Shown here one piece after another: positions 3,316 through 63,753 of a DNA stretch of 64,000 bases (position 1 is its first letter; each line of letters starts with the position of its first letter). Where the stretch lies: contig CALWJY010000002.1 in assembly GCA_944381135.1 (NCBI GenBank), forward strand, positions 1,929 to 65,928, given 5' to 3'. Origin of the DNA: an uncultured Clostridia bacterium (lineage in GTDB: Bacteria; Bacillota; Clostridia; Christensenellales; UBA1242). The translations under genes and the position numbers were made by a program. The notes beneath the pieces are model-generated. The model saw only the letters and a list, made by a program, of their open reading frames with translations. It had not been told where the DNA came from and did no database searches.

Positions 3316-6300
3316 TTATCCAACAAGTGTTGAATTGTCAGTTTCTTCCTCTTTGTCAACTTTGACAGGAACAACAGTGCGATATTTCTTCAAGCCGGTT
3401 CCTGCAGGAATAAGTTTTCCAATGATGACATTTTCCTTGATTCCCACAAGGTTGTCCACCTTGCCCTTAAGAGCAGCATCTGTAAGCACACGAGATGTCT
3501 CTTGGAAAGATGAAGCGGAAAGGAAAGATTCTGTCGAAAGAGAAGCTTTTGTGATTCCCAAAAGAATTCTTCTTGCAATTGCTGGCTTCCCACCTGCACG
3601 CAAAACTCTTTCGTTTTCTTCTTCACAACGAGAGATGTCAACAATGTCTCCTGTCAAAAGTTCGGTGTCTCCAGAGTCTTCAATCTTGACTTTCTTAAGC
3701 ATTTGTCTGATGATGATTTCAATGTGTTTGTCATTAACCTTAACATCTTGTCCACGATAAACAGAAATGACTTCAGAAAGCAAATATTGTTGAAGCCCTT
3801 TAAGCCCCTTTGTCACAAGCAAATCGGATGGGTTGATTGCACCAGCAGTAAGTTGAGTTCCTGGCTCAACAGTGTCACCATTCTTCACTTTCAAAACGGC
3901 TGGTTTGCGAGCTTCATAGTCGATGTCGCCTTCACCTGTCACAATTGTGATGTAATAGTTCTTGGCGTCCTCTTTGATTTTAACCTTTCCAGAAACTTCG
4001 CAAAGCAAGCATTCGCCCTTAGGTCTTCTTGCTTCAAAAATTTCCTCGACTCTTGGCAAACCTTGAGTGATGTCGGCAGCAACCGCAGCACCACCGGTGT
4101 GGAAAGTTCTCATCGTAAGCTGAGTTCCCGGTTCACCAATTGACTGAGCGGCAATAATGCCCACAGCCTCGCCAAGTGTGACCATATCTTTTCCAGCCAA
4201 GTTTCTTCCATAGCATTTTGCACAAACGCCATGCTTGCAACGGCATGTGATGAGCGAACGGATTTGAACTTCTTTGATTCCTGCTTTGACAACTGCAGCA
4301 GCCTGCTCTTTTGAAATCATTGTGTTTGCAGGAACAATGACTTCTTTTGTTTTAGGGTCAACAATGTCATCAACAGCAACTCTGCCATAGATTCTTTCTT
4401 CCAAACTTTCAATGACGAACCCGTCTGAAACAAGGTCAGAAACCACAACACCCTTAACTTTCTCGCCTGCGTCAGCAAAGCAGTCTTCAGTCGTCACAAC
4501 AACATCTTGCGCAATGTCCACAAGTCTTCTGGTCAAATATCCAGAGTCTGCAGTTTTAAGCGCAGTGTCGGACAAACCTTTACGCGAACCACGGGAGTTG
4601 ATGAAATATTCAATTGGAGAAAGTCCGGTTTTGAACGAAGATTTGATTGGTGTGTCGTTCTTGACACCGGAAGCTGTCGCCTTAATTCCAATCATACCGC
4701 AGTCTTGGTTGAGCTGTGTGTTGTTTCCACGCGCGCCCGAAAGCACCATAAGACTGAATGGGTTGAATGTGTCAAGGTGTTTGACAACCGCATTTTGAAC
4801 TTCGTTGACTGCCTCGTTCCAAATTGCAACGTTTTCGTTTATTTTTTCATCAAAAGTGATAAGTCCGCGTTGAAGCATTTTTTCGTTTTCCAAAACTTTT
4901 GCTTCAGCGTCTTTCAAAATTTGTTTCTTTTCTTCTGGCTCTTGAATGTCATAGATGTTTACAGAAATGGAAGCAAGAGTGGAATATTTATATCCAATGT
5001 CTTTCAATCTGTCAACAAGTTTAGAGCATTCTGTTGTGCCAAATTTGTCATAGCAATCTGCCACAATTTTCTTCAATTCTTTCTTCATGACAGGCTTGTT
5101 GATTTCAAGGTCACAAATGTTTTCTGGGTTGCTTCTGTCAACATATCCCAAATTTTGTGGAATGATGTTGTTGAACAAAATTCTTCCAACAGATGTTTGC
5201 ACTCGCTTTGTGTAGGCTTTTCCGTCAACTTCTTTGGAAAGACGAACAGTGATTTCTGCTTGCAAATCCAAATTCTTTGTTTGGTATGCATAGATGACTT
5301 CATTTTTGGAAGCAAAAATTGAGCCCTCGCCTTTTGCACCTGGTTTGAGAAGTGTCAAATAATAGCATCCAAGCACAACGTCCTGTGCTGGTGTGACAAT
5401 TGGTTCACCATCTGACAATTTCAAGATGTTGTTTGAAGCAAGCATAAGAGTTCTTGCTTCTGCTCTTGCGTCTATTGAAAGAGGAATGTGAACAGGCATT
5501 TGGTCGCCGTCGAAGTCGGCGTTGAACGCAGCGCACACTGATGGATGCAGTTTGATTGCTTTTCCTTCAACAAGCACAGGTTCGAAAGCCTGAACAGAAA
5601 GTCTGTGAAGTGTTGGCGCACGGTTCAAAAGCACAGGATGGTCTTTGATGACATCAGCAAGCACATCCCAAACAATTGGTTTTTCTCTTTCAATCATGCG
5701 TTTTGCACTCTTGATGTTGTTTGATTGGTTCATGTCAATCAAGCGGTTGATGATGAATGGCTTGAAAAGTTCAAGAGCCATTTCTTTTGGAAGTCCGCAT
5801 TGATACATCTTAAGTTCTGGTCCAACAACAATAACTGAACGGCCGGAATAGTCCACACGCTTTCCAAGAAGGTTTTGTCTGAAACGACCTTGTTTTCCGC
5901 CAAGCATAGCGGTGAGTGATTTCAAATCTCTCTGTTTTGAACCTTGAACAGGTTTTCCACGCTTACCATTGTCGATGAGGTTGTCAACAGCCTCTTGAAG
6001 CATTCTCTTTTCGTTTCTGACAATCACATCAGGAGCCCCAAGTTCCATAAGTTTCTTCAAGCGATTGTTTCTGTTGATGACACGACGATAGAGGTCGTTC
6101 AAATCGCTTGTGGCATAGCGTCCGCCATCCAATGGAACCATAGGACGAAGGTCTGGTGGAAGCACAGGGATGACGTCCAAAACCATCCAAGTTGGGTTGT
6201 TTCCACTCTTTCTGAAAGATTCCACAACATCCAATTTTTTTGCAGCCTTAATTTTTCTCTGACCTTTTGAAGTCTTGATTTCTTCTTTAAGCGCAGCACT

Positions 6301-6864
6301 TTCTTTGTCGAGGTCAACATGAGAAAGAAGCACTTTGATTGCCTCTGCGCCCATGCCAGCGTCAAAACTTCCGCGACCATATTTTTCAAGTGCCTCACGA
6401 TATTCCTTATCATTCAAGATTTGCTTATATTCAAGGTCGGTGTTTTTAGGGTCTGTGACGATGTAGTTGATGTAATAAACAACCTGCTCCAAGGTTTTTG
6501 GAGTCAAATCAAGAAGTGTTCCTATGCGAGATGGAACAGAACGGAAATACCAAAGGTGTGTGACAGGAGCGGCAAGTTCGATGTGCCCCATTCTTTCACG
6601 GCGCACTTTAGACCTTGTCACCTCAACCCCGCACTTGTCGCAGACAACACCACGATAACGGATGCGTTTATATTTTCCACAGTGGCATTCCCAGTCTTTT
6701 TTAGGTCCAAAAATCTTTTCGCAGAAAAGACCATCTTTTTCAGGCTTCTGAGTGCGATAGTTGATTGTTTCTGGCTTTGTCACCTCACCATGAGACCATT
6801 CTCTGATTTTCTCAGGTGAAGCAATTCCAATTTTAATTTTTTCAAAGTTGTTAAGTTCAAACAT
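3316..6864 (-). CDS. rpoC: DNA-directed RNA polymerase subunit beta-prime
   Basis: Carries the catalytic NADFDGDQM motif and the N-terminal zinc finger [24 protein letters not shown] placed the start at the ATG at 6864 ([13 protein letters not shown]), which parallels the Firmicute MLDVNNFE N-terminus recalled from memory. An AGGGG RBS lies upstream. The ORF-track ATG at 6870 is the alternative start. Confidence 0.97.
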
Positions 6865-29819: not shown

Positions 29820-30581
29820 ATGGAAAAAAATTCATCATCACGCAATTCTTCATCAGACAAGAAAAAGAGCGGTTCAAAAGTTGACCATGGCGGACACCGC
29901 GTGAGACTGACAAAACTTGTGTCAGACGCTGGAATTGAAAATGTGACAGACATTCAAGCTGTCGAATTTTTTCTGACATACATCATTCCAAGATGTGATG
30001 TCAACCCTCTTGCTCACAGGCTGTTGGACAGATATGGAAATTTTGGAAACATCATTGATGCGGACGTAAACGACCTTAAGAATGTTGAAGGAATCAGCAA
30101 TCAAAGTGCCATGAAAATCAAATTGTTTAAGTCGCTGATGGAGCACTACATCATTTCAAAATCAATGAAACGAATCAGTCTGCAAAACAAAAATGAGTTT
30201 TTGGACTTTTTGGAAAGTTTGATGCAAAACAAGCCCACAGAAAACTTATATTTGCTTGCAATCGACCACGGGTTTAAATTGATTGGAATGAGAAAATATG
30301 ATTTGGACAAAGTGCGAAATGTTGGACTTGAACCAATTGAAATCTATAAATTCATCATTTCAACTCACCCAGCATATCTCGCTTGCGCCCACAACCATCC
30401 GGGCGGAAGTGCCATGGCAACAGGAAACGACCAAAACGCAAGCAAATACATCATTGAAATCATAAAAAACTTGGAGTGCCAATTCCTTGACAGTTTGATT
30501 GTTGGAACAGACGGAATCTATAGTGTGAAAAACGATGGTTTCCTCAGAAACTATGACAATGTGGTTGACTTTCACTTATAA
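29820..30581 (+). CDS. RadC-like JAB-domain protein (paralogue 1, divergent metal motif)
   Basis: The N-terminal GHRVRLTKL and LAHRLLDRYGNFGNI match the RadC HhH region. The C-terminal AHNHPGGSAMATGND departs from the canonical HxHPxG-x3-PS-x2-D motif. Confidence 0.75.
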   Translation: MEKNSSSRNSSSDKKKSGSKVDHGGHRVRLTKLVSDAGIENVTDIQAVEFFLTYIIPRCDVNPLAHRLLDRYGNFGNIIDADVNDLKNVEGISNQSAMKIKLFKSLMEHYIISKSMKRISLQNKNEFLDFLESLMQNKPTENLYLLAIDHGFKLIGMRKYDLDKVRNVGLEPIEIYKFIISTHPAYLACAHNHPGGSAMATGNDQNASKYIIEIIKNLECQFLDSLIVGTDGIYSVKNDGFLRNYDNVVDFHL

Positions 30582-30809
30582 TGCCCAACACGAATTAACC
30601 ATTTGCACATATGCACAAATTTTGATTTAATCAAATTTCTCATGTTTAGATTAATAAAACAAATAAAAAATTAAAATTAAAAAAAGTAAAAATGATAAAA
30701 TTAATTAAAAATTCCAAAAATTTGATTAAAAATATTAAAAATTTAATAAAAAATCAATAAAAATATAAAAAAAATTGTTTTTTTGCAATTTTATCATCAA
30801 ATTTAAAAT

Positions 30810-31799: not shown

Positions 31800-31829
31800 A
31801 TTTTATCATATGTGCACGCATTTTGTCAA
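31800..31829 (-). promoter_or_regulatory. sigma-A promoter of the MBL gene (leaderless or near-leaderless transcript)
   Basis: The minus strand reads TTGACA (31824-31829), 18 nt, TGaTAAAAT (-10 at 31800-31805). Only 9 nt separate the -10 from the ATG at 31790 and there is no SD. The spacer contains CATATGTGCA (31807-31816). Confidence 0.55.
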
Positions 31830-32692: not shown

Positions 32693-32839
32693 TTTTTCAA
32701 CAAATTCACAAATTGTAATAATACAGGATTTGTAAAAATAAATAAAACATAAAACACCTTCTTTTGAAGGTGTTTTTTCATTTGAACATATGCTCATTTA
32801 ATCTTTTTTAAAAATTGCCTTGATTTTCTTCCACAACTT

Positions 32840-35674
32840 TCAGCGTCTGTCTTCTTTGTCTTTTTCAAGAATTTTCTTTAAGAACTGACCTGTGTAACTG
32901 TTTTTGTTTTCGGCAACTTCCTCCGGCGTGCCTGTGGCAACAATTGTTCCGCCCTCATCACCACCCTCTGGACCAAGGTCGATGATGTAATCTGCACACT
33001 TGATGACATCCAAATTGTGTTCAATCACAACAACCGAATTTCCGTTTCCAATCAAGCGTTGCAAAATTGCAATGAGTTTCTTGACATCAAACACATGAAG
33101 TCCGGTGGTTGGCTCATCCAAAATATACATCGTCTTTCCGGTGTCTTTTCTTGCAAGTTCAGTTGCCAACTTCACGCGCTGAGCCTCTCCGCCAGAAAGT
33201 GTGGTTGCTGGTTGACCAAGTTTGATGTATGAAAGCCCAACATCATAGAGCGTTTGAATTTTGTTTTTGATGGAAGGGATGTTTTCAAAAAATTTCAAAG
33301 CCTCTTCCACTGTCATGTCCAAAACATCACTGATGGTTTTGCCTTTATATTTCACTTCCAAAGTCTCGCGGTTATATCTCTTCCCATGGCAAACTTCACA
33401 AGGAACTGTGATGTCCGGCAAGAAATACATCTCAATTTCTTTCACGCCAGCACCCTCGCACGCCTCACATCTTCCGCCCTTGATGTTAAACGAAAAGCGT
33501 CCTGTTCCAAAACCACGCGCCTTGGCGTCAGGCGTTGCAGCAAAAAGTTCTCGGATTTGTGTGAAAACACCTGTGTAGGTGGCTGGATTGCTTCGTGGAG
33601 TTCTTCCAATTGGCGCTTGGTCTATGCTGATAACTTTGTCCAAAGCTTCGGCGTTTTTGATTTCCTTGAAATTTCCAAGTTCCAATTTGCTGTTGTTGAG
33701 AAGATTGGAAAGATATGGAAACAAAATTCCATTAATCAAACTTGACTTTCCTCCTCCCGAAACACCCGTCACAAGAGTCAAAATTCCTGTTGGAATGTCA
33801 ACATCAATGTTTTTGAGGTTGTTTTGTTTTGCACCAACAATCTTTATGAAATCTTTTGGCTTTCTTCGCTCTTTCGGAATTTCAATTTTTTCATCTCCAC
33901 GAAGAAAGCGTGCTGTGATGGATTTCTTGCTTTTCATCACTTGCTCAACAGTTCCGCTTGCCACAATTTCGCCGCCATGCACACCAGCATATGGCCCAAC
34001 ATCCACAAGGAAGTCCGCTGCTCTGATTGTGTCCTCGTCGTGCTCGACAACAATCAAAGTGTTGCCCAAATCTTTCAAATTTTTGAGCGAAGCAAGCAAT
34101 TTTTCATTGTCTCTTTGATGAAGCCCAATGGATGGCTCGTCTAAAATGTAAAGCACTCCCACAAGCCCGCTTCCAATTTGTGTTGCAAGCCTGATTCTCT
34201 GTGCCTCACCACCAGACAAACTTTCAGCCGAACGGTTTAAGGTGAGATATGAAAGTCCAACATCATTCAAAAAGTTCAACCTCGCCAAAATTTCTTTCAA
34301 AATTGGCTCTGCAATCTGACTTTTTGCTTTGCTTAGTTGCAAGTTCTGAAAAGTTGGAATGAGAGTTTTGATGCTGTAGGAGCAATAGTCATCAATGTCC
34401 TTATGGTTGATTTTCACCGAAAGCGCACTCTCATTCAAGCGTTTGCCGTGGCACACATGACAAGTTTGCTCTCGCATAAATCTGCCAATTTCAAACTTTG
34501 CCCATTCACTTGTGGTTTCGCGATATCTACGCCTCAAGTTGTTGACAATTCCCTCAAAATTGACGGAAATCATATGTTTTCCGCGCTCGTTGTCCACTTC
34601 AACATCAATCCTATCCGTTCCCGTGCCATAAAGAAGAATGTTGAGTTTGTCTTTTGGCAACTTTTTGACAGGTGTGTTCATGTCAATTTCATACTGCTTT
34701 GCAACCGCTGTGAGATAACTTTTTGCAAGCGACCCCTCTTCCATTCTCCAACCTGTGATGTTGAACGCCCCCTCATTGATGGAAAGGTTGCCATTTTTCA
34801 AAACGAGACCCTCGTCAATGTCCAACGTGAACCCCAAGCCTGTGCAATTTGGACAAGCGCCATATGGAGCGTTGAAAGAGAAAAGTCTTGGACTGATTTC
34901 CTCCAGTGTCCAACCGCACTCAGGGCAGGCATAGTTGGTGGAGAAAAGTTCGTTTTTCTCTCCATTTGAGACAATCACAAGCCCATCGGCAAGTTTGAGA
35001 GCGGTTTCCAAACTCCCGGAAAGACGAGTGTCTTTGCCATCTTTCAAAGTTATGCGGTCAACAACAACACTGATGTTGTGTTTAATGTTTTTGTCAAGAA
35101 CAATCGTTTCATCCAAAGTGAAAATTGAGCCATCAACTTCCACACGGACATATCCACTTCGCTTCAAACTGTCCAAAAGTTTTTCGTGGCGCCCCTTTTG
35201 CCCACGAACAACAGGCGCAAGAATGGTGATTTTTGCACCCTCGCCATATTCTTTGATTGCATCAACAATTTGGTCGATGGTTTGCTGCTTGACCTCGCGA
35301 TGACAATGCGGACAGTAAGGCGTCCCAACACGCGCAAAAAGCAGACGAAGATAGTCATAAATCTCCGTCACAGTCCCAACAGTCGAACGCGGATTGCGGT
35401 TGGTTGTTTTTTGGTCAATTGAAATGGCTGGCGAAAGTCCTTCAATCACTTCCACATCTGGCTTTTGAGTTGAACCCAAAAATTGACGCGCATATGACGA
35501 CAAACTTTCAATATATCTTCTCTGCCCCTCTGCAAAAATTGTGCCAAAAGCAAGCGAACTTTTGCCCGAACCACTCACTCCGGTGAAGACCACAAATTTG
35601 TCACGCGGAATTTCCAAACTGACATTTTTAAGGTTGTTTTCTTTTGCGCCAACAATTTTAATTGAATTTTTCAT
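32840..35674 (-). CDS. uvrA: excinuclease ABC subunit A
   Basis: 944 aa with two ABC modules (GVSGSGKSSLAF and GVSGGGKSSLIN), LSGGEAQR twice, and CxxC zinc-finger pairs. Confidence 0.97.
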   Translation of the reverse strand: MKNSIKIVGAKENNLKNVSLEIPRDKFVVFTGVSGSGKSSLAFGTIFAEGQRRYIESLSSYARQFLGSTQKPDVEVIEGLSPAISIDQKTTNRNPRSTVGTVTEIYDYLRLLFARVGTPYCPHCHREVKQQTIDQIVDAIKEYGEGAKITILAPVVRGQKGRHEKLLDSLKRSGYVRVEVDGSIFTLDETIVLDKNIKHNISVVVDRITLKDGKDTRLSGSLETALKLADGLVIVSNGEKNELFSTNYACPECGWTLEEISPRLFSFNAPYGACPNCTGLGFTLDIDEGLVLKNGNLSINEGAFNITGWRMEEGSLAKSYLTAVAKQYEIDMNTPVKKLPKDKLNILLYGTGTDRIDVEVDNERGKHMISVNFEGIVNNLRRRYRETTSEWAKFEIGRFMREQTCHVCHGKRLNESALSVKINHKDIDDYCSYSIKTLIPTFQNLQLSKAKSQIAEPILKEILARLNFLNDVGLSYLTLNRSAESLSGGEAQRIRLATQIGSGLVGVLYILDEPSIGLHQRDNEKLLASLKNLKDLGNTLIVVEHDEDTIRAADFLVDVGPYAGVHGGEIVASGTVEQVMKSKKSITARFLRGDEKIEIPKERRKPKDFIKIVGAKQNNLKNIDVDIPTGILTLVTGVSGGGKSSLINGILFPYLSNLLNNSKLELGNFKEIKNAEALDKVISIDQAPIGRTPRSNPATYTGVFTQIRELFAATPDAKARGFGTGRFSFNIKGGRCEACEGAGVKEIEMYFLPDITVPCEVCHGKRYNRETLEVKYKGKTISDVLDMTVEEALKFFENIPSIKNKIQTLYDVGLSYIKLGQPATTLSGGEAQRVKLATELARKDTGKTMYILDEPTTGLHVFDVKKLIAILQRLIGNGNSVVVIEHNLDVIKCADYIIDLGPEGGDEGGTIVATGTPEEVAENKNSYTGQFLKKILEKDKEDRR

Positions 35675-35869: not shown

Positions 35870-36373
35870 TCAGCATAAATCAATTCCTGTATAGCGGTCA
35901 TCATCTTCGGGCAGCTCTTTCTTTTTCCCATTTTCTTGCGTCAACATTCCAACAACACCAAGTGAAGTCCCTACCACCACTGAAGAACCAAGCATGCCAA
36001 AAATTTTTCTCAAAGAAACATCATCCATTTGCTCTTGAACCGAAACATATTCTGCCGAAATTTCTGGAGAGACATTTTCACTTGTCATATATTCTTCCAC
36101 ATCCAACTCTTGCAGATTGCCAACCTTTTCAGCAAATTCTTCAGGCGTGATTTGATTTGCATTAAGTTGAAGTTTAAATTCCTCAATTTGTTGAAGTTTA
36201 AACTCCTCATTTGCCTCATAAAAACCACTTCGCTCAACGAGATTGTTTTTGTTTTCAATCAACTCGGCGTTATCGTCGTTGACCAGAAAGAAAACCATGG
36301 AACCAAAGGCACACAAAGCCACCAAACCACTCACAAATGCAGCAACTCTTTTCTTTGTTGTGTTTTTAATCAT
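35870..36373 (-). CDS. small bitopic membrane protein inserted between uvrB and uvrA, hypothetical
   Basis: The start is ATG 36373 (MIKNTTKK) with a GGAGG 5 nt upstream. It has N- and C-terminal hydrophobic helices and an acidic coiled central part containing the EEFKLQ duplication. Confidence 0.6.
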   Translation of the reverse strand: MIKNTTKKRVAAFVSGLVALCAFGSMVFFLVNDDNAELIENKNNLVERSGFYEANEEFKLQQIEEFKLQLNANQITPEEFAEKVGNLQELDVEEYMTSENVSPEISAEYVSVQEQMDDVSLRKIFGMLGSSVVVGTSLGVVGMLTQENGKKKELPEDDDRYTGIDLC

Positions 36374-36472
36374 ATCATCCTCCATTTAAGTGACCATTTC
36401 AACATATGCTCACATTTACAAATCATCTGAATTGTCCAAACTTTTCAGGTTTTCAAATCATCCACATCATTC

Positions 36473-36649: not shown

Positions 36650-38620
36650 TCATTCAATCTTATCTTTTCTATTTAAACGCTTCTTCAAATTGTTGATTTT
36701 ATTTCTAAGTTCAATCGCACGCTCGAAATCAAGTTGAGAGGAGGCAATTTTCATCATTGAAGTCAAGCGGTCAATTTCTTTTGGAATATCTTTCTTGGCA
36801 ACTGAGTCTTCGGAAACTTTCTTGGAAATATCCAAGGTGTTTTTGATTTCTTTTATGATTGTTTTTGGCACAATGCCATGCTCTTTGTTGAATTTTTCTT
36901 GAATTGCCCTGCGTCGTTCCGTCTCGTCAATCGCATTTTGCATAGACTTTGTTATGGTGTCTGCAAACATGATGACATGCCCATTTGCATTTCTCGCCGC
37001 CCTTCCAATTGTTTGAATAAGCGCACCTTCGCTTCTCAAAAAGCCTTCCTTATCCGCGTCCAAAATGCAGACAAGTTCCACTTCTGGCATGTCAAGCCCC
37101 TCTCTCAAAAGGTTGATGCCCACAAGGACATCAAAATCTCCCTCGCGAAGACCATTGATGATTTCCACACGCTCCATGGTGTCAATTTCACTGTGAAGAT
37201 ATTTCACTTTGAATTTGTGGTCGGCAAGATAGGTTGTCAAACTTTCTGCCATCTTCTTTGTCAATGTTGTCACCAGCACACGTGCACCTCTTTCAATCGT
37301 CTTTCGGCACTCTTCCATCAACACTTCCACTTGATTTTTGATTGGTTTGATTTCAATCTTAGGGTCCAAAAGTCCTGTCGGGCGGATGACTTGTTCCACC
37401 ACTTGCCCTGCATTTTCCATTTCATATGGACCCGGCGTTGCAGAAACATAAATTGTTTGACGAAGTTTCTTTTCAAACTCTTCAAACTTAAGCGGACGAT
37501 TGTCACGCGCCGCTTCAAGACGAAAACCATATTCCACAAGCGAATTTTTGCGCGCCCTGTCACCATTATACATCGCACGAATTTGAGGAATTGTCATGTG
37601 GCTTTCGTCAATGATTGTCAAAAAGTCGTTTGGAAAATAATCAATCAGCGTATATGGCGCTTCTCCCGGCTTTCGTCCGTCAAAATAGCGCGAATAGTTT
37701 TCAATTCCACTGCAATACCCCACTTCTTTCATCATCTCAAGGTCATAGGCAACACGCTGTCCAATTCTTTCTGCCTCAAGTGGTTTCTTTTCTGCTTCAA
37801 ACTTGGCAATCGCTTTTTGACGGTCAATTTCAATCTGAGCAATGGCGTTTTGCAAGGTGTTGCTTCCAACCGCATAGTGCGTGGCAGGATAGATTGCTAC
37901 AAAACTGACTTCATTAAGCATATTTCCGCTGACGGGGTCAAACTCGAATATTTTTTCAATTTCGTCGCCGAAAAAACGCACGCGAATTGCCACATCACTC
38001 ATGTTGGCAGGAAAAATGTCCACAACATCCCCTTTCACTCTGAAAGTTGTGCGCTTGAAATCTATGTCGTTGCGCGTGTATTGAATGGCAATGAGATGGT
38101 TGATAAGTTCGTCACGGTCGCATTCCTCGCCCTCACGCAAGGCAATGTGCAAGTTGTGATATTCCTCCGGGCTTCCCAAACCATATATGCACGAGACAGA
38201 TGCCACAACAATTGTGTCTCGGCGCTCCAAAAGAGAAGATGTGGCAGAGGAACGCAGTTTGTCAATGTCCTCATTCACACTCATATCTTTTTCAATGTAG
38301 GTGTCCGTGGAAACAATGTATGCCTCTGGCTGATAGTAGTCATAATAAGAAACAAAATATTCCACACGATTGTTTGGAAAAAACTCGCGAAATTCGTTGC
38401 AAAGTTGTGCCGCCAAGGTCTTGTTGTGCGCAATCACAAGGGTTGGCTTCTGCACCTTTTCAATGATGTTTGCCATGGTGTAGGTCTTTCCAGAACCTGT
38501 CACCCCAAGCAAAACTTGGTCTTTCAAACCATCCTCAATGCCCTCCACCAATTTTTCGATGGCTTGTGGTTGATCGCCAGCCGGCTTATATTTTGAAACT
38601 AACTTAAACTTCTCTTCCAT
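36650..38620 (-). CDS. uvrB: excinuclease ABC subunit B
   Basis: 656 aa with GVTGSGKT, the IIDESHMT (DExH) box, and a C-terminal UVR-like helix. Confidence 0.97.
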
Positions 38621-38627
38621 ATTCTCT

Positions 38628-38636
38628 ATTTTACCA
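38628..38636 (-). promoter_or_regulatory. extended -10 promoter of uvrB (leaderless transcript predicted)
   Basis: The minus strand reads TGgTAAAAT. Only 7 nt (agagaat) separate it from the ATG at 38620, and there is no SD and no good -35. Confidence 0.4.
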
Positions 38637-38731
38637 CAAAAAGTGCAAAAGTCTATACGAATTCACAAAAATCTTTAATATCACTTAAACGCTAAACAAC
38701 AAAACAAAAACACGAAGTCTTCATCTGACAA

Positions 38732-38800: not shown

Positions 38801-39517
38801 TTAAGCTTTTGTCACAACATATGTTGAAACGTCATCTTCCTCAACTAAAGTGGAAACATATCCCTCTGCAACAAAATTTGTGGACATATCTGAACTTTCA
38901 GCTGCATTAGCGGCTGGATCAAAATTCTCGAAGATTCCGCCTGAAACAACAATGCTTGCAATTCCTTCTTCTCGAGCAGAATCTAACAAATTGAGTGTAA
39001 ACTGATAGTCTTTTGCAGTAGCAAGTTGTTGAATGGAAAATCTTCCACCCTTGATTTCAGCAGATCCTTCAGTCACATACACCGCACTTATGTTGCTTAC
39101 ATATGTTCCATCTTCAATGATGAGATGTCCGCCTTCTATAACATCAAATGTGTAGCAATCGTTTTCTTTTGCAATGATGCTTCCATTTCCTCTAACAGTC
39201 AAATCTCCTCCGTCACGAACGGAAATGATGGACCAAACTCCTTCGGTTTCATCCCAAAGATCCGTCTCATTGCTGAGAGTCTTTCCGTTCAAATCAAGCA
39301 CAACTTCTCTTGAAATAATCAACGCCTCATCAACAACAACATCGTCCTCAAGTCTAACAATTTCGCTTTCGCCCGCAAGTGCTTCAACAAGTTCTTCATA
39401 TGTTGAAACACTTTCTGTTTTTGAGCCTCCACAAGCAGTTGCTATAAATATGAAAGAAACAAGCATAACTGCAACAGCAAGCACAAACCCAATTTTTTTA
39501 GATTTTGAAATTTGCAT
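38801..39517 (-). CDS. small beta-helix-like surface lipoprotein (238 aa)
   Basis: The start is ATG 39517 (MQISKSKKIGFVLAVAVMLVSFIFIATAC, lipobox ATAC) with a GGAGG 5 nt upstream. VVLDLNGKTLSN and GGDLTVRGNGSIIA are typical of right-handed beta-helix adhesin-like repeats. The ORF-track TTG start at 39610 is rejected. Confidence 0.75.
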   Translation of the reverse strand: MQISKSKKIGFVLAVAVMLVSFIFIATACGGSKTESVSTYEELVEALAGESEIVRLEDDVVVDEALIISREVVLDLNGKTLSNETDLWDETEGVWSIISVRDGGDLTVRGNGSIIAKENDCYTFDVIEGGHLIIEDGTYVSNISAVYVTEGSAEIKGGRFSIQQLATAKDYQFTLNLLDSAREEGIASIVVSGGIFENFDPAANAAESSDMSTNFVAEGYVSTLVEEDDVSTYVVTKA

Positions 39518-39548
39518 ATAAACCTCCTTCAAATATGCTCTCAAATTC

Positions 39549-39577
39549 ATTATAATATGGCTGGGGGGGGGAGTCAA
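39549..39577 (-). promoter_or_regulatory. sigma-A promoter with a C9 (plus-strand G9) tract in the spacer, candidate phase-variable promoter
   Basis: The minus strand reads cgcTTGACT-CCCCCCCCCAGCCATAT-TATAATgaatttgag. The -35 is at 39572-39577 and the -10 at 39549-39554. The spacer is exactly 17 nt, of which 9 are the homopolymer. Confidence 0.7.
39563..39571. repeat. G9 homopolymer (simple sequence repeat)
   Basis: This is the only G/C homopolymer of this length that I saw in the window. Confidence 0.95.
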
Positions 39578-39630: not shown

Positions 39631-39990
39631 TTAACTTTTAAAAATTGCCTTCAAAATTATGCCAAAAACAAAGCTGACAGTGGCAAGAAACATGCTTCGA
39701 AGCACCAAAAGTCCAAAAGTTCGCCGATTTTTTCGTGTGTCGGCGTTGTAGGACTGCCCACTTTTCTTAAGGTTGACACAATAATAATATCCCTTTTTGC
39801 TGTCGGAAACCACAAAGTCAATATAGTTCTCGTTTGAGAGCGTCACCATAATTTCATCAATCTCTTCCACAGAAAGCACAAATTTCTTTGAAAGTGCCTG
39901 AGTGATTTCTTGCGGAGAAATGAGATATGTCCGCTTTTGCTGACACTTGTTGCAAAGATATGACATCACCATTCGCTCCTTTTTTGTCAT
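39631..39990 (-). CDS. tail-anchored winged-helix (BlaI/MarR-like) protein, paralogue A
   Basis: The start is ATG 39990 with a GGAGG 6 nt upstream. The N-terminal roughly 80 aa has a wHTH-like pattern (KERMVMSYL...ISPQEITQALSKK...). The C-terminal hydrophobic anchor is FGLLVLRSMFLATVSFVFGIILKAIF. It aligns by eye with the 40170-40547 product. Confidence 0.6.
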   Translation of the reverse strand: MTKKERMVMSYLCNKCQQKRTYLISPQEITQALSKKFVLSVEEIDEIMVTLSNENYIDFVVSDSKKGYYYCVNLKKSGQSYNADTRKNRRTFGLLVLRSMFLATVSFVFGIILKAIFKS

Positions 39991-40149
39991 GAAATTCCTC
40001 CGCACCCTTTTTTCTTAATTTCCCCAAATGCAAGACAAAATATTCTTTTGGCAAATCGCGCATATGTGCACTTGAAGTTTTGTGAAAAAACATTCAGAAA
40101 ACAGCAATAAAAGCGCACTTTTTCGTTGATTTTTGAATAATATTTTGCA

Positions 40150-40163
40150 ATTTTTGCAAAAAT
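40150..40163. promoter_or_regulatory. perfect 14-bp palindrome ATTTTTGCAAAAAT, candidate operator overlapping an extended -10
   Basis: It lies 6 nt upstream of the ATG at 40170. TGcAAAAAT (40155-40163) could serve as an extended -10 for a leaderless transcript. TTTTGCAA is also directly repeated at 40143-40150. Confidence 0.4.
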
Positions 40164-40169
40164 ATCTTC

Positions 40170-40547
40170 ATGATTGACATAAAATCAAAACTTGTGTTGT
40201 CCATTCTTGCCAAAGAAAGTGATGACGGAAGTTATAAAATTGTTGAAGTTTCCGACATAATCATGGCACTTCCAAAACATTTTCGCATGGACAGCGAGGC
40301 AGTGAAACACATTTTAACGCATTTGGAGCGTCAGGATATGATTTCAATCAAATATGACGATGATGACGTCTATTGCCTCGCCGTGCTTCCATATGGATTT
40401 GAAGTTCTGGAGACTGAAAAACCTCGCCGACCAAAAACGAAAGAAAACACAATCAATTGGAAAAATTTTTTCATCTTGTTTTCTTCGGCATTCTTTGGTG
40501 CAGTGGTTGGTGCAATTGTCTGTTTTTTGTTTTTCAAGTTTTTATAG
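40170..40547 (+). CDS. tail-anchored winged-helix protein, paralogue B
   Basis: 125 aa. KSKLVLSILAKESDDGSYKIVEVSDIIMALPKHF parallels paralogue A. The C-terminal anchor is FFILFSSAFFGAVVGAIVCFLFF. There is no SD upstream. Confidence 0.6.
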   Translation: MIDIKSKLVLSILAKESDDGSYKIVEVSDIIMALPKHFRMDSEAVKHILTHLERQDMISIKYDDDDVYCLAVLPYGFEVLETEKPRRPKTKENTINWKNFFILFSSAFFGAVVGAIVCFLFFKFL

Positions 40548-40654: not shown

Positions 40655-40686
40655 CAAAAAACTCAACAATTTTGTTGAGTTTTTTA
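40655..40686. terminator. bidirectional intrinsic terminator
   Basis: An A6 run, ACTCAACA-attt-TGTTGAGT (40661-40680), then a T run. It lies between the convergent 40170-40547 and radC-like genes. Confidence 0.75.
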
Positions 40687-40727: not shown

Positions 40728-41480
40728 CTATTTTGCAAAACTTGAAATGGTTTCTTTCAGTTCATCAATGTCGCAATATGTTCTACACATGCGGTTTTCA
40801 TATTGACTGAAAACACCGTCATCGCCAACAATCAAAGAATCAATCAAATTTACGCCACAAGTTTCACAAAATTCTTTAACAATTTTGTAAGCGTCCTTGT
40901 CTGCTTCAGACGGAGTTGCTTTTCCAAAGGGATGACAATGGGCAATCACCATTGCAGAGGGTTTGGAAGAGGCAAGGAAATTTGCAAGTTCCATTGTCGG
41001 AACTCCAACCTCAACCAAACTTGAAGAAGAAAATCGGCGCTTGTGAGTGATTATGTTTGCCGAACTCAATGCAAACAAAAACAAATTTTCAGAGGTTCGA
41101 AAACGAAGATGGGCTTCAACAGTGTCGACCAAATCGGCTCTATTGGAAATTTTCAATCGTTTGCCCATCTTTCCAATGGTATATTGGAAAAACAAACCAC
41201 CAAAAAGATTAATCATTTTTGCCGAGCGTTCATTGATGCCATCAACTCTCATCAAATCTTCAACGCTGGAATCGACAACTTTTGCAAAAGTGTCAAATTC
41301 GGTCAGAAGCCTGTGAGCAAGTGGATTGACATCACCACGAGGAAAAATGTAGGTCAAAAACAACTCCAAAACTTGAAAATCGCTTAAGTTGTCCACCCCG
41401 GCATTGATTGCCAAATCCACAAGCCTTTTTCTGTGCCCCGAGTGTATGCACTTTTCTTTCTTCTTTTCCTCTGTTTTCAT
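40728..41480 (-). CDS. RadC-like JAB-domain protein (paralogue 2, canonical motif)
   Basis: GHRKRLVDL, LAHRLLTEFDTFAKV and HCHPFGKATPSEAD (HxHPxG-x3-PS-x2-D). An AAAGGAG RBS lies upstream. It starts 82 nt after the giant ORF stop, with only a weak hairpin between the two. Confidence 0.8.
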   Translation of the reverse strand: MKTEEKKKEKCIHSGHRKRLVDLAINAGVDNLSDFQVLELFLTYIFPRGDVNPLAHRLLTEFDTFAKVVDSSVEDLMRVDGINERSAKMINLFGGLFFQYTIGKMGKRLKISNRADLVDTVEAHLRFRTSENLFLFALSSANIITHKRRFSSSSLVEVGVPTMELANFLASSKPSAMVIAHCHPFGKATPSEADKDAYKIVKEFCETCGVNLIDSLIVGDDGVFSQYENRMCRTYCDIDELKETISSFAK

Positions 41481-62997: not shown

Positions 62998-63558
62998 TCA
63001 CTTGTTTTGCAGGTCGAGATAGAGGTTTGGGTCAACTTCAAGTCCGTCTTTGAACAATGTGAAGTGCAAGTGTCCTCCTGTTGCAGACTCATTTGCTGCA
63101 CTGTCTGAAGCCTCGCCGATTTGTTGTCCTTTTGACACCACATCACCTTCGGCAACTTTAACATTCTCAGAAAGCGAAGAATAAACACTCACAAAGCCAT
63201 CAGCATGCTCAATTTCAACAACATATCCTTCCAATGAATTTTCGTCCACAGAAGTCACAACACCATCGCAAGCCGCAAGCACCAAGTTGTCTTCAGAAGT
63301 CAAATCAACCGACAAATGAATTTCCCATCTGTTGAGACTTTCATTGAATTGAAGTTTGTCGTCAGCATAGTCTTTCACAACAACAGCATTGTTCATTGGC
63401 AAGCCAAATGTGATGACATTTTCTGTTGAAACCTCCTCTCCTCTTGGAATGCTGAAAGCAATTGTCAATGCAACACCAACAGCAAACACACAAGCAAGCG
63501 AAAGCGCCCCAACCTTTTTAAACAAGTTTTTCCCCTTTTTCTCTTTTTTGATTTCCAT
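62998..63558 (-). CDS. membrane-anchored M23/LytM peptidase, SpoIIQ-like
   Basis: The start is ATG 63558 with a GGAGG upstream. It has an N-terminal TM helix (VGALSLACVFAVGVALTIAF). The M23 motifs are HLSVD (HxxxD) and GGHLHF (HxH). It neighbours spoIIID, as SpoIIQ does in Clostridia. Confidence 0.7.
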   Translation of the reverse strand: MEIKKEKKGKNLFKKVGALSLACVFAVGVALTIAFSIPRGEEVSTENVITFGLPMNNAVVVKDYADDKLQFNESLNRWEIHLSVDLTSEDNLVLAACDGVVTSVDENSLEGYVVEIEHADGFVSVYSSLSENVKVAEGDVVSKGQQIGEASDSAANESATGGHLHFTLFKDGLEVDPNLYLDLQNK

Positions 63559-63753
63559 AACACCTCCACGCCTAAATGATTGCCAGAAATTCATACTTTA
63601 AACATAAAATCTCAACTTTTTTAATAAAATTCAATTTTTTCGCAGTTTTTAAGCAATTTTTTATTGAATTTTTTGATATTTTTCGTTTCAATACATTAAT
63701 TTAATTCGTAAATTTAATTTCAAAATTGATTTGTTTATCGAACAATAAGTTTT

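Follow-up and report, generated by a model that had tools for sequence, protein, structure and literature searches.

What do two small genes do that are transcribed away from each other in the 64,000-nucleotide stretch analysed here (the window; forward-strand positions 1,929 to 65,928 of contig CALWJY010000002.1, GenBank assembly GCA_944381135.1, from an uncultured Clostridia bacterium)? The original prediction took the two gene products, called A and B here, for membrane-tethered DNA-binding proteins; it read two palindromes between the genes as operators and placed the pair in a regulatory or DNA-tethering module for neighbouring surface-protein genes. The divergent open reading frames (ORFs), their lengths, the 179-bp spacer and both palindromes were all found where they had been placed (Table 1). 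The neighbourhoods of homologous genes showed A and B to be conserved partners of uvrB and uvrA across a wide range of uncultured gut Clostridia. We favour, at a probability of roughly 40%, an interpretation in which A and B would form a membrane-anchored protein adaptor working at the membrane with co-produced UvrB and UvrA.

Paralogy, distribution and linkage to uvrB and uvrA

Pairwise BLASTP produced no alignment between A and B. The profiles of the two families, when compared with each other, aligned over their full length (hhalign probability 94%, E = 1.3e-7, 121 columns, 17% identity) in exactly the register that had been proposed, and the hidden Markov model (HMM) of each family matched the other family at E = 1e-5 to 1e-8 across ~ 70 loci. 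Judged by these profiles, A and B are true, ancient paralogues.

Homologues of A formed 361 clusters and those of B 173 clusters at 90% identity, with gene A present in 153 species genomes; all originated from gut metagenomes or metagenome-assembled genomes (MAGs) labelled Clostridia, Clostridiales, Christensenella, Catabacter or ‘Candidatus Caccovivens’. A combined A and B profile searched against 1.84 billion representatives (clusters at 50% identity) retrieved 559 clusters at E ≤ 1e-3 and 186 at E ≤ 1e-10, nearly all of them 115–130 aa long and aligned end to end. Among the matches listed, 148 proteins were new (123 B-like and 25 A-like), and with the exception of a single automatic ‘MarR family’ label the source names read ‘hypothetical protein’. 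Searches of Pfam, NCBIfam, PADLOC, PHROGs and PDB sequences with A and B returned no meaningful family, in keeping with the earlier statement that the pair belongs to no characterised one; a match of the pair to LmuC (17.8 bits) was taken as chance. No described membrane-anchored winged-helix protein linked to uvrB was found in literature searches. Alignment of A and B to phage and plasmid collections with tblastn gave no matches either; a mobile-element origin was rejected on this result, and the two genes are taken as a chromosomal core pair. Collectively, A and B constitute a sizeable undescribed family pair of known fold, with an unusual anchor and a deep, previously unreported linkage to uvrBA, and add a large family for which neither Pfam nor NCBIfam holds a model.

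The window’s own clade was surveyed in 80 species-level genomes or loci. Both genes were present in 72 of these, B being divergent from and adjacent to A in 50, divergent with an insert of 0.7–3.8 kb in 20 and in tandem with it in two. In 66/72 loci with uvrB visible, this gene lay downstream of A on the same strand, while uvrA was seen in 61 and radC in 68 of the 80 loci. The level of conservation of A within the clade (70–92% identity) was about that of UvrB (74–94%), and the uvrA product (orf944) was 69–93% identical across 61 loci.

The spacing between A and uvrB fell into two modes. In ~ 22 of 64 loci, belonging to the more distant clade members, the two genes were tightly coupled, with the uvrB ATG 1–6 nt past the A stop codon or overlapping it and with the last codons of A (AAAGGA TAA) forming the uvrB Shine-Dalgarno sequence. 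In the remaining loci, uvrB had a leaderless promoter of its own instead of this coupling: the sequence TGTGnTAtAAT ended 6–7 nt before its ATG, with no Shine-Dalgarno sequence, in the window and ~ 35 relatives. An extended -10 element so close to the start codon, unaccompanied by a Shine-Dalgarno sequence, points to a leaderless uvrB mRNA. The same promoter geometry was seen at a metallo-beta-lactamase (MBL)-fold gene (31790) and at ORF171 (36385) of the window.

More distant contexts were sampled in eight lineages, whose B-like proteins were 20–35% identical to B. All eight showed a B-like gene, an A-like gene and uvrB in this order, followed by uvrA where the contig continued, and in several of them start and stop codons abutted or overlapped. 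In the two loci checked by HMM, the second gene fell within the A family (E = 3e-21 and 3e-30). Since 8/8 distant lineages share this arrangement, B-A-uvrB-uvrA is the ancestral operon and the divergent orientation in the window a derived state.

These neighbourhoods bear directly on the idea that A and B regulate, or tether to DNA, a giant gene and a phase-variable lipoprotein gene through the two palindromes. The pair does lie between these two genes in this one window, and its winged-helix fold would suit such a role. A homologue of the C-terminal part of the giant gene adjoined the pair in only 25/80 clade loci, and a homologue of the lipoprotein in 4/80, so that the lipoprotein gene is best seen as an insertion between A and uvrB in the window; both were absent from the eight distant lineages that keep the pair. 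Together with palindromes that are neither conserved nor enriched (see below), this makes the surface-protein explanation very improbable. The conserved linkage expected to giant lipoprotein or RadC genes held for radC within the window’s clade and failed for the giant gene; radC was not adjacent in the distant lineages, and its conservation as a neighbour is confined to this clade.

Rearrangements of the cassette were seen in some relatives. Relative to radC and uvrB, the whole A-B cassette was inverted in three species (L001, L002 and L022; about 5400–6400), so that B, not A, preceded uvrB; the inversion has apparently occurred more than once, since the A proteins of these species were 92%, 91% and 81% identical to that of the window. 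Active inversion through flanking inverted repeats was considered and rejected, as only weak AT-rich matches were present in the window and the inversion was observed between species. In more distant clade members (L052–L080), an extra ORF was located upstream of A on the same strand, between B and A; its product was highly variable (103–486 aa), K/E-rich and coiled-coil-like, with no family assigned to it (e.g. L056 4826–5881 and L059 4450–5910).

Predicted fold, membrane anchor and possible role

AlphaFold2 models built from family alignments reached a pLDDT (predicted local distance difference test) score of 90 for A and 87 for B. The predicted topology was common to both: helix H1, strand beta1, helix H2, a loop of 7–8 residues, helix H3, a beta-hairpin wing, a short helix and a long C-terminal helix. 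Comparison with the PDB using Foldseek gave only generic winged-helix matches (E = 4e-4 to 1e-2, TM-scores 0.45–0.6), with MarR proteins (among them MepR) and domains of kleisin, ORC and TubR retrieved for B, and PadR-like proteins for A, with BlaI and MecI lower in the list.

The C-terminal helix was strongly hydrophobic. The best 19-residue windows on the Kyte-Doolittle scale were residues 94–112 in A (2.19) and 102–120 in B (2.42), followed by seven and five residues, respectively, and about 2–7 residues extended beyond the predicted transmembrane (TM) helix. A hydrophobic helix lay at the C-terminus of 140 of 141 full-length family representatives, and the median tail after it was 3.5–5 residues. 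The AlphaFold2 models showed this helix as continuous in A and B. Both are thus predicted tail-anchored membrane proteins, a class marked by a single C-terminal TM helix, a very short external tail and no signal peptide, and the earlier description of a winged helix on one anchor with almost no external part agrees with the models and with hydropathy. Because family searches were empty, the C-terminal helix is hydrophobic and the tails are short, ‘tail-anchored winged-helix paralogues of no characterised family’ is a correct label.

The pair had also been called BlaI/MarR-like, which stands as a statement about fold class and not about family. MarR HMMs (Pfam PF01047 and PF12802) matched neither A nor B at E ≤ 1 and none of 66 diverse members at E ≤ 0.01. 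In MarR proteins, helices on the N- and C-terminal sides of the winged-helix core build a soluble dimer interface; the AlphaFold2 models of A and B lack the N-terminal dimerisation helix and have a hydrophobic TM span as their C-terminal helix, and the Foldseek alignment to MarR-type structures covered only the winged-helix core of ~ 80 residues. The PadR HMM (PF03551) likewise matched neither A, B nor any of the 66 members, with fold likeness to PadR reaching TM-scores of 0.52–0.62 (E = 2e-3). Regulators of PadR-like subfamily 2 and MarR (PDB 5h20, 3hhh and MepR 3eco) share with A and B the H1-beta-H2-H3-wing order, a long C-terminal helix and a size of 100–140 aa. They differ from them in that A and B have a hydrophobic membrane helix rather than an amphipathic dimerisation helix, an acidic helix 3 and a long H2-H3 loop (7–8 residues). 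As for the BlaI/MecI/CopY family, Penicillinase_R (PF03965) weakly matched a single one of the 66 members (E = 3.7e-3), MecI and BlaI stood at Foldseek ranks 26 and 31 (E ~ 1e-2), and no M56 protease, the partner of BlaR1/MecR1 type, was present in any neighbourhood examined. By predicted fold, A and B are therefore members of the MarR/PadR/BlaI structural class that fall outside each of these families in sequence and architecture.

In a classical DNA-binding winged helix the recognition helix is basic or polar and the wing basic; the sequences of A and B place acidic residues on parts of this surface. Helix 3 of A reads VEEIDEIM, with E42, E43, D45 and E46 on its exposed face invariant or nearly so, and distant A-like proteins retain an acidic xEE(I/V)(D/E)K pattern there. 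In B, helix 3 is mixed in the window (K46, H47, H51 and R54) and acidic or neutral across the family, the wing tip is DDDD with D63–D65 nearly invariant, and residues 1–78 carry a net charge of -6. Family-wide, the median domain charge was +1 for A-like and -1 for B-like proteins. With the helix 3 of A and the wing of B acidic, classical DNA binding is doubtful and canonical major-groove reading appears unlikely, which weakens the claim that these are DNA-binding proteins.

Within A, conservation was highest in the membrane helix (RSxFLATVSFVFG invariant; R98, S99, F101, L102, A103, V105, S106, F107, F109 and G110 in 38 sequences), with a small-residue face formed by S99/A103/S106/G110, while the TM helix of B was variable. 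The near-invariant TM helix of A with its small-residue face, and the contrast between a basic A domain and an acidic B domain, suggest that a hetero-oligomer of A and B is probable.

We therefore weighed how such a pair might act beside uvrBA. Across a wide range of gut Clostridia, A and B are the leading genes of a B-A-uvrB-uvrA unit; B has flipped to its divergent position in the window’s clade, and the lipoprotein gene has entered between A and uvrB in this genome. According to the adaptor interpretation, the two proteins would be anchored in the cytoplasmic membrane, their winged-helix domains facing the cytoplasm, presumably as a hetero-oligomer, and would serve as an adaptor for the nucleotide-excision-repair proteins UvrB and UvrA rather than as operator-binding repressors. 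RodZ, a membrane-anchored helix-turn-helix (HTH) protein whose HTH fold binds the protein MreB and not DNA, offers a model for this, as it too places a cytoplasmic HTH-type fold on a single TM helix. It differs from A and B in that its HTH is of the Xre type, its extracytoplasmic domain is sizeable and it is neither paired nor uvrBA-linked, and no homology between the two was detected.

Several points weigh against the adaptor. What ties A and B to UvrB and UvrA is gene linkage, which co-regulation or historical accident could explain, as it might for csbA (see below). Winged-helix proteins encoded first in an operon are usually autoregulators. The basic wing tip (KK) and basic flanks of A leave non-canonical DNA contact conceivable. 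Finally, the distant contexts come from eight lineages only, labelled no finer than Clostridia or Clostridiales MAG.

Some of these points favour the competing idea that A and B are membrane-tethered transcription factors, acting as homo- or heterodimers, that would regulate their own genes as well as uvrBA and replace or supplement LexA. The MarR/PadR class of their fold is compatible with this, as is their place as the first genes of an operon, which recalls the Firmicute stress repressors hrcA and ctsR. Their N-terminal domain of DNA-binding type on a membrane anchor is also reminiscent of ToxR, CadC and BcrR, although these have external or multi-TM sensors and an OmpR- or Xre-type domain, as against 2–7 external residues and an unrelated winged helix in A and B; the OmpR-type HMM Trans_reg_C matched neither A, B nor any of the 66 members, and A and B have no external domain. 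The acidic face of helix 3 in A, the acidic or neutral helix 3 of the B family, the DDDD wing and a median domain charge near 0 speak against transcription factors, and the remaining evidence on this alternative comes from the control regions.

The prevailing view holds the UvrABC repair system to be complete and soluble. If correct, a membrane-anchored pair heading uvrBA would point to a hitherto unrecognised layer of repair, in spatial organisation or in regulation, in little-studied gut bacteria. A bolder formulation, speculative and rather unlikely as it stands, sees A and B as a two-subunit membrane accessory of excision repair, stoichiometric with UvrB and UvrA, that would bring the repair machinery or damaged DNA to the membrane, or else as a LexA-independent sensor-regulator of uvrBA across a large gut-Clostridia clade, and adds that they may use sigma-F/G-like promoters, i.e. 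those of the developing spore.

Cysteines formed a further shared feature of the two families. One invariant Cys lies in wing strand 3 of both (A C71, B C69), A has a CxxC in H1 (C13 and C16) and B has C17 in most relatives. A proteins of distant clade members carry four Cys (C22 added), which hints that the winged helix may harbour a metal or redox site.

Control regions, palindromes and the LexA question

Palindrome expectations were derived from a first-order Markov model of the window. Perfect 14-bp palindromes occurred eight times against 6.9 expected, with ~ 0.02 expected per 179 bp; ATTTTTGCAAAAAT is therefore locally unusual, with no global enrichment of its class. Imperfect 12-bp palindromes (≤ 1 mismatched pair) numbered 398 against 375 expected, and as about one of these is expected in any 179 bp, GCGCATATGTGC is at chance level. 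Neither GCGCATATGTGC nor the core GTGCACATATG was present in any of 89 related loci. The 11-mer GTGCACATATG was shared by the A-B spacer (40061–40071) and the promoter spacer of the MBL-fold gene (31807–31817).

Alignment of 50 related A-B spacers on their start codons revealed two position-locked elements upstream of B, GNATAA at ~ -36 to -31 and (T)G-N-AAAAAT-A at -15 to -6. The spacer of the window (179 bp) is longer than most, the median among relatives being ~ 90 bp. The right half of ATTTTTGCAAAAAT was conserved in the 50 spacers as TG-n-AAAAAT, 6 nt before the B ATG; its left half was not, many relatives having AAAAAG there and not ATTTTTG, and the 50 spacers contained no conserved palindrome. 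A bipartite pattern, GNATAA-N14-15-GNAAAAAT, was found in 25/50 B-sense and 17/50 A-sense regions, 42 in total as compared to a mean of 0.86 and at most five in shuffled sequences, and in B-sense regions it always ended 5–7 nt before the ATG. The B element is the sole plus-strand match to this pattern in the window; on the A side of the window itself the strict pattern did not occur. GNATAA at the -35 position is not sigma-A-like. Since uncoupled uvrB has the same geometry, leaderless starts from extended -10 promoters are normal in this clade, and the best account of ATTTTTGCAAAAAT is that it combines the T-rich -16 region and the TG-n-AAAAAT -10 element of a putative B promoter, whose mRNA would start at or next to the ATG. 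The reading of both palindromes as operators is accordingly not supported; taking them for operators, and the pair for a surface-protein regulator, was a tempting misreading that the comparison of related loci corrects.

The canonical LexA box was not found in the module either. The exact sequence GAAC-N4-GTTC was missing from the A-B, A-uvrB and upstream regions of all 89 loci, exact matches being located only elsewhere in four of them, and 5.5 kb of intergenic DNA contained 8 boxes with one mismatch, where 5.5 would be expected. A pair with hundreds of sequence clusters, conserved like UvrB, is thus placed where the usual LexA box is missing. As a LexA box, GCGCATATGTGC was rejected: the canonical box is absent from the module in all loci, and the motifs centred on CATATG are peculiar to this genome. 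In distant lineages, no obvious motif was common to the regions upstream of the operon.

For transcription factors, the bipartite element common to the A and B promoters (42 against 0.86 expected) is a favourable finding, and because the two promoters share it, A and B are probably co-regulated. The lack of a LexA box in the module of 89 loci points the same way; the uvrB gene of Clostridioides difficile has one at -30 (PMC4234289). The conserved spacer elements, however, lie exactly at -35 and -10, where no operator is needed to account for them, and neither a conserved palindrome nor a motif common to the distant upstream regions was detected. Taken together with the acidic helix 3 and wing, these observations render the transcription-factor alternative possible but doubtful.

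A third alternative holds that A, B or both are DNA-damage checkpoint effectors that would delay division through their TM helices, in the manner of YneA, SosA, SidA and DidA. It draws on their being small membrane proteins co-transcribed with core repair genes, and on the almost invariant TM helix of A, whose helix-packing face suggests a specific membrane partner. Genes for small membrane proteins also lie beside, or are co-expressed with, DNA-repair genes in the cases of YneA, SosA and SidA and of csbA, which lies upstream of uvrB in Bacillus subtilis (csbA-uvrB-uvrA). All of these differ from A and B in lacking a winged helix, in their topology and in showing no homology, and the SOS inhibitors have LexA boxes, of which the module has none. 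Known inhibitors have an external domain or are bare TM peptides, whereas an 80-aa cytoplasmic domain is equally conserved here; conservation of A at about the level of UvrB would also be unusual for fast-evolving checkpoint peptides. On balance, a checkpoint function seems improbable.

The B promoters also resemble forespore promoters mapped for sigma-F/sigma-G in C. difficile, a class with a GHATA-type -35 and a G-n-AAAATA-type -10. Mapped examples are GAATAA-N15-GAAAAAATA-N5-transcription start site (TSS) at CD2856 and GTATAA-N16-AAAAATA-N5-TSS at CD3220.1 (Table S6, PMC3789822), to be compared with GTATAA-N15-GAAAAAATA-N5-ATG among the B promoters and GAATAA-N15-GCAAAAATA-N5-ATG in the window; spacing differs by ~ 1 nt (longer), and the sequences are AT-rich and of low complexity. 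A sigma-F/sigma-G-like reading of the B promoter may serve as a lead only, TG-n-AAAAAT being also plausible as a sigma-A extended -10 element. An M23 peptidase of 198 aa (62998–63594, minus strand), whose best NCBIfam match was SpoIIQ at 77 bits against a cut-off of 250 bits, is the sole sporulation hint in the window and is insufficient as evidence.

Two sequences tried as regulon motifs, GVAAAAATA and TTTGSMAAAAWTA, were not enriched in the window. Rfam searches of the intergenic region and its surroundings gave nothing but sub-threshold matches on the terminator hairpin.

Feature coordinates and further observations

Coordinates of the features discussed are collected in Table 1.

Table 1. 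Genes and control elements of the A-B locus, numbered from the first nucleotide of the window
Feature	Position	Strand	Description
Gene A	39631–39990	minus	119 aa from ATG (ORF list); tail-anchored winged-helix protein; predicted winged helix at ~ residues 1–80, basic juxtamembrane stretch, TM ~ 94–117
Gene B	40170–40547	plus	125 aa (ORF list); tail-anchored winged-helix paralogue of A; acidic predicted winged helix, wing tip DDDD, TM ~ 98–122
A-B divergent control region	39991–40169		179 bp
Gene A Shine-Dalgarno sequence	39997–40001	minus	GGAGG, 6 nt before ATG
A-side promoter-like region	40016–40045	minus	GAATAT, then TTTGGGGAAATTA; degenerate bipartite copy; relatives’ consensus TTTGG[AC]AAAAT
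Near-palindrome GCGCATATGTGC	40058–40069		12 bp, one mismatched pair
B core promoter-like element	40135–40164	plus	GAATAA (40135–40140), 15 nt, GCAAAAATA (40156–40164)
Perfect palindrome ATTTTTGCAAAAAT	40150–40163		14 bp; overlaps -16/-10 element of putative B promoter
B -10 parts	TG 40155–40156; AAAAAT 40158–40163	plus	Element ends 5 nt before ATG; leaderless geometry
Bidirectional terminator hairpin (likely)	40655–40686		Between 3' ends of B and radC; perfect 14-bp stem flanked by A and T runs
radC	40728–41480	minus	Convergent with B; Pfam RadC, E = 3e-18
Lipoprotein gene	38801–39519	minus	Lineage-specific insertion between A and uvrB, outside the module
uvrB extended -10 promoter	38628–38655	minus	Ends 7 nt before ATG
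uvrB	36650–38620	minus	Conserved partner downstream of A; lipoprotein gene intervenes here
uvrA	32840–35674	minus	Last gene of conserved B-A-uvrB-uvrA arrangement; Pfam UvrA domains in related loci

A longer version of gene A starting from a GTG (to 40005, 124 aa) was rejected, as homologues begin at MTKKE and a GGAGG precedes the ATG.

The gap between uvrB and uvrA holds ORF171 (171 aa, 35870–36385, minus strand), which had no family match; gaps of 0.5–0.7 kb between these two genes were seen in many relatives too. An 18-nt motif (minus-strand TGWGCATATGTKSAAATG) occurs three times in the window, at 30600–30617, 32779–32796 and 36395–36412, one copy overlapping the -10 region of ORF171. It resembles a degenerate GAAC-N4-GTTC box and is related to GTGCACATATG, and it was not found in related loci.

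A second RadC-family gene (29820–30581, plus strand; Pfam RadC, E = 8e-18) lies ~ 10 kb from the radC gene adjoining B. The lipoprotein gene has a near-consensus promoter, TTGACT-17-TATAAT (39549–39577, minus strand), whose 17-nt spacer contains nine consecutive C (plus-strand G at 39563–39571), which in sequence terms would be a classic layout for on/off switching through spacer length.

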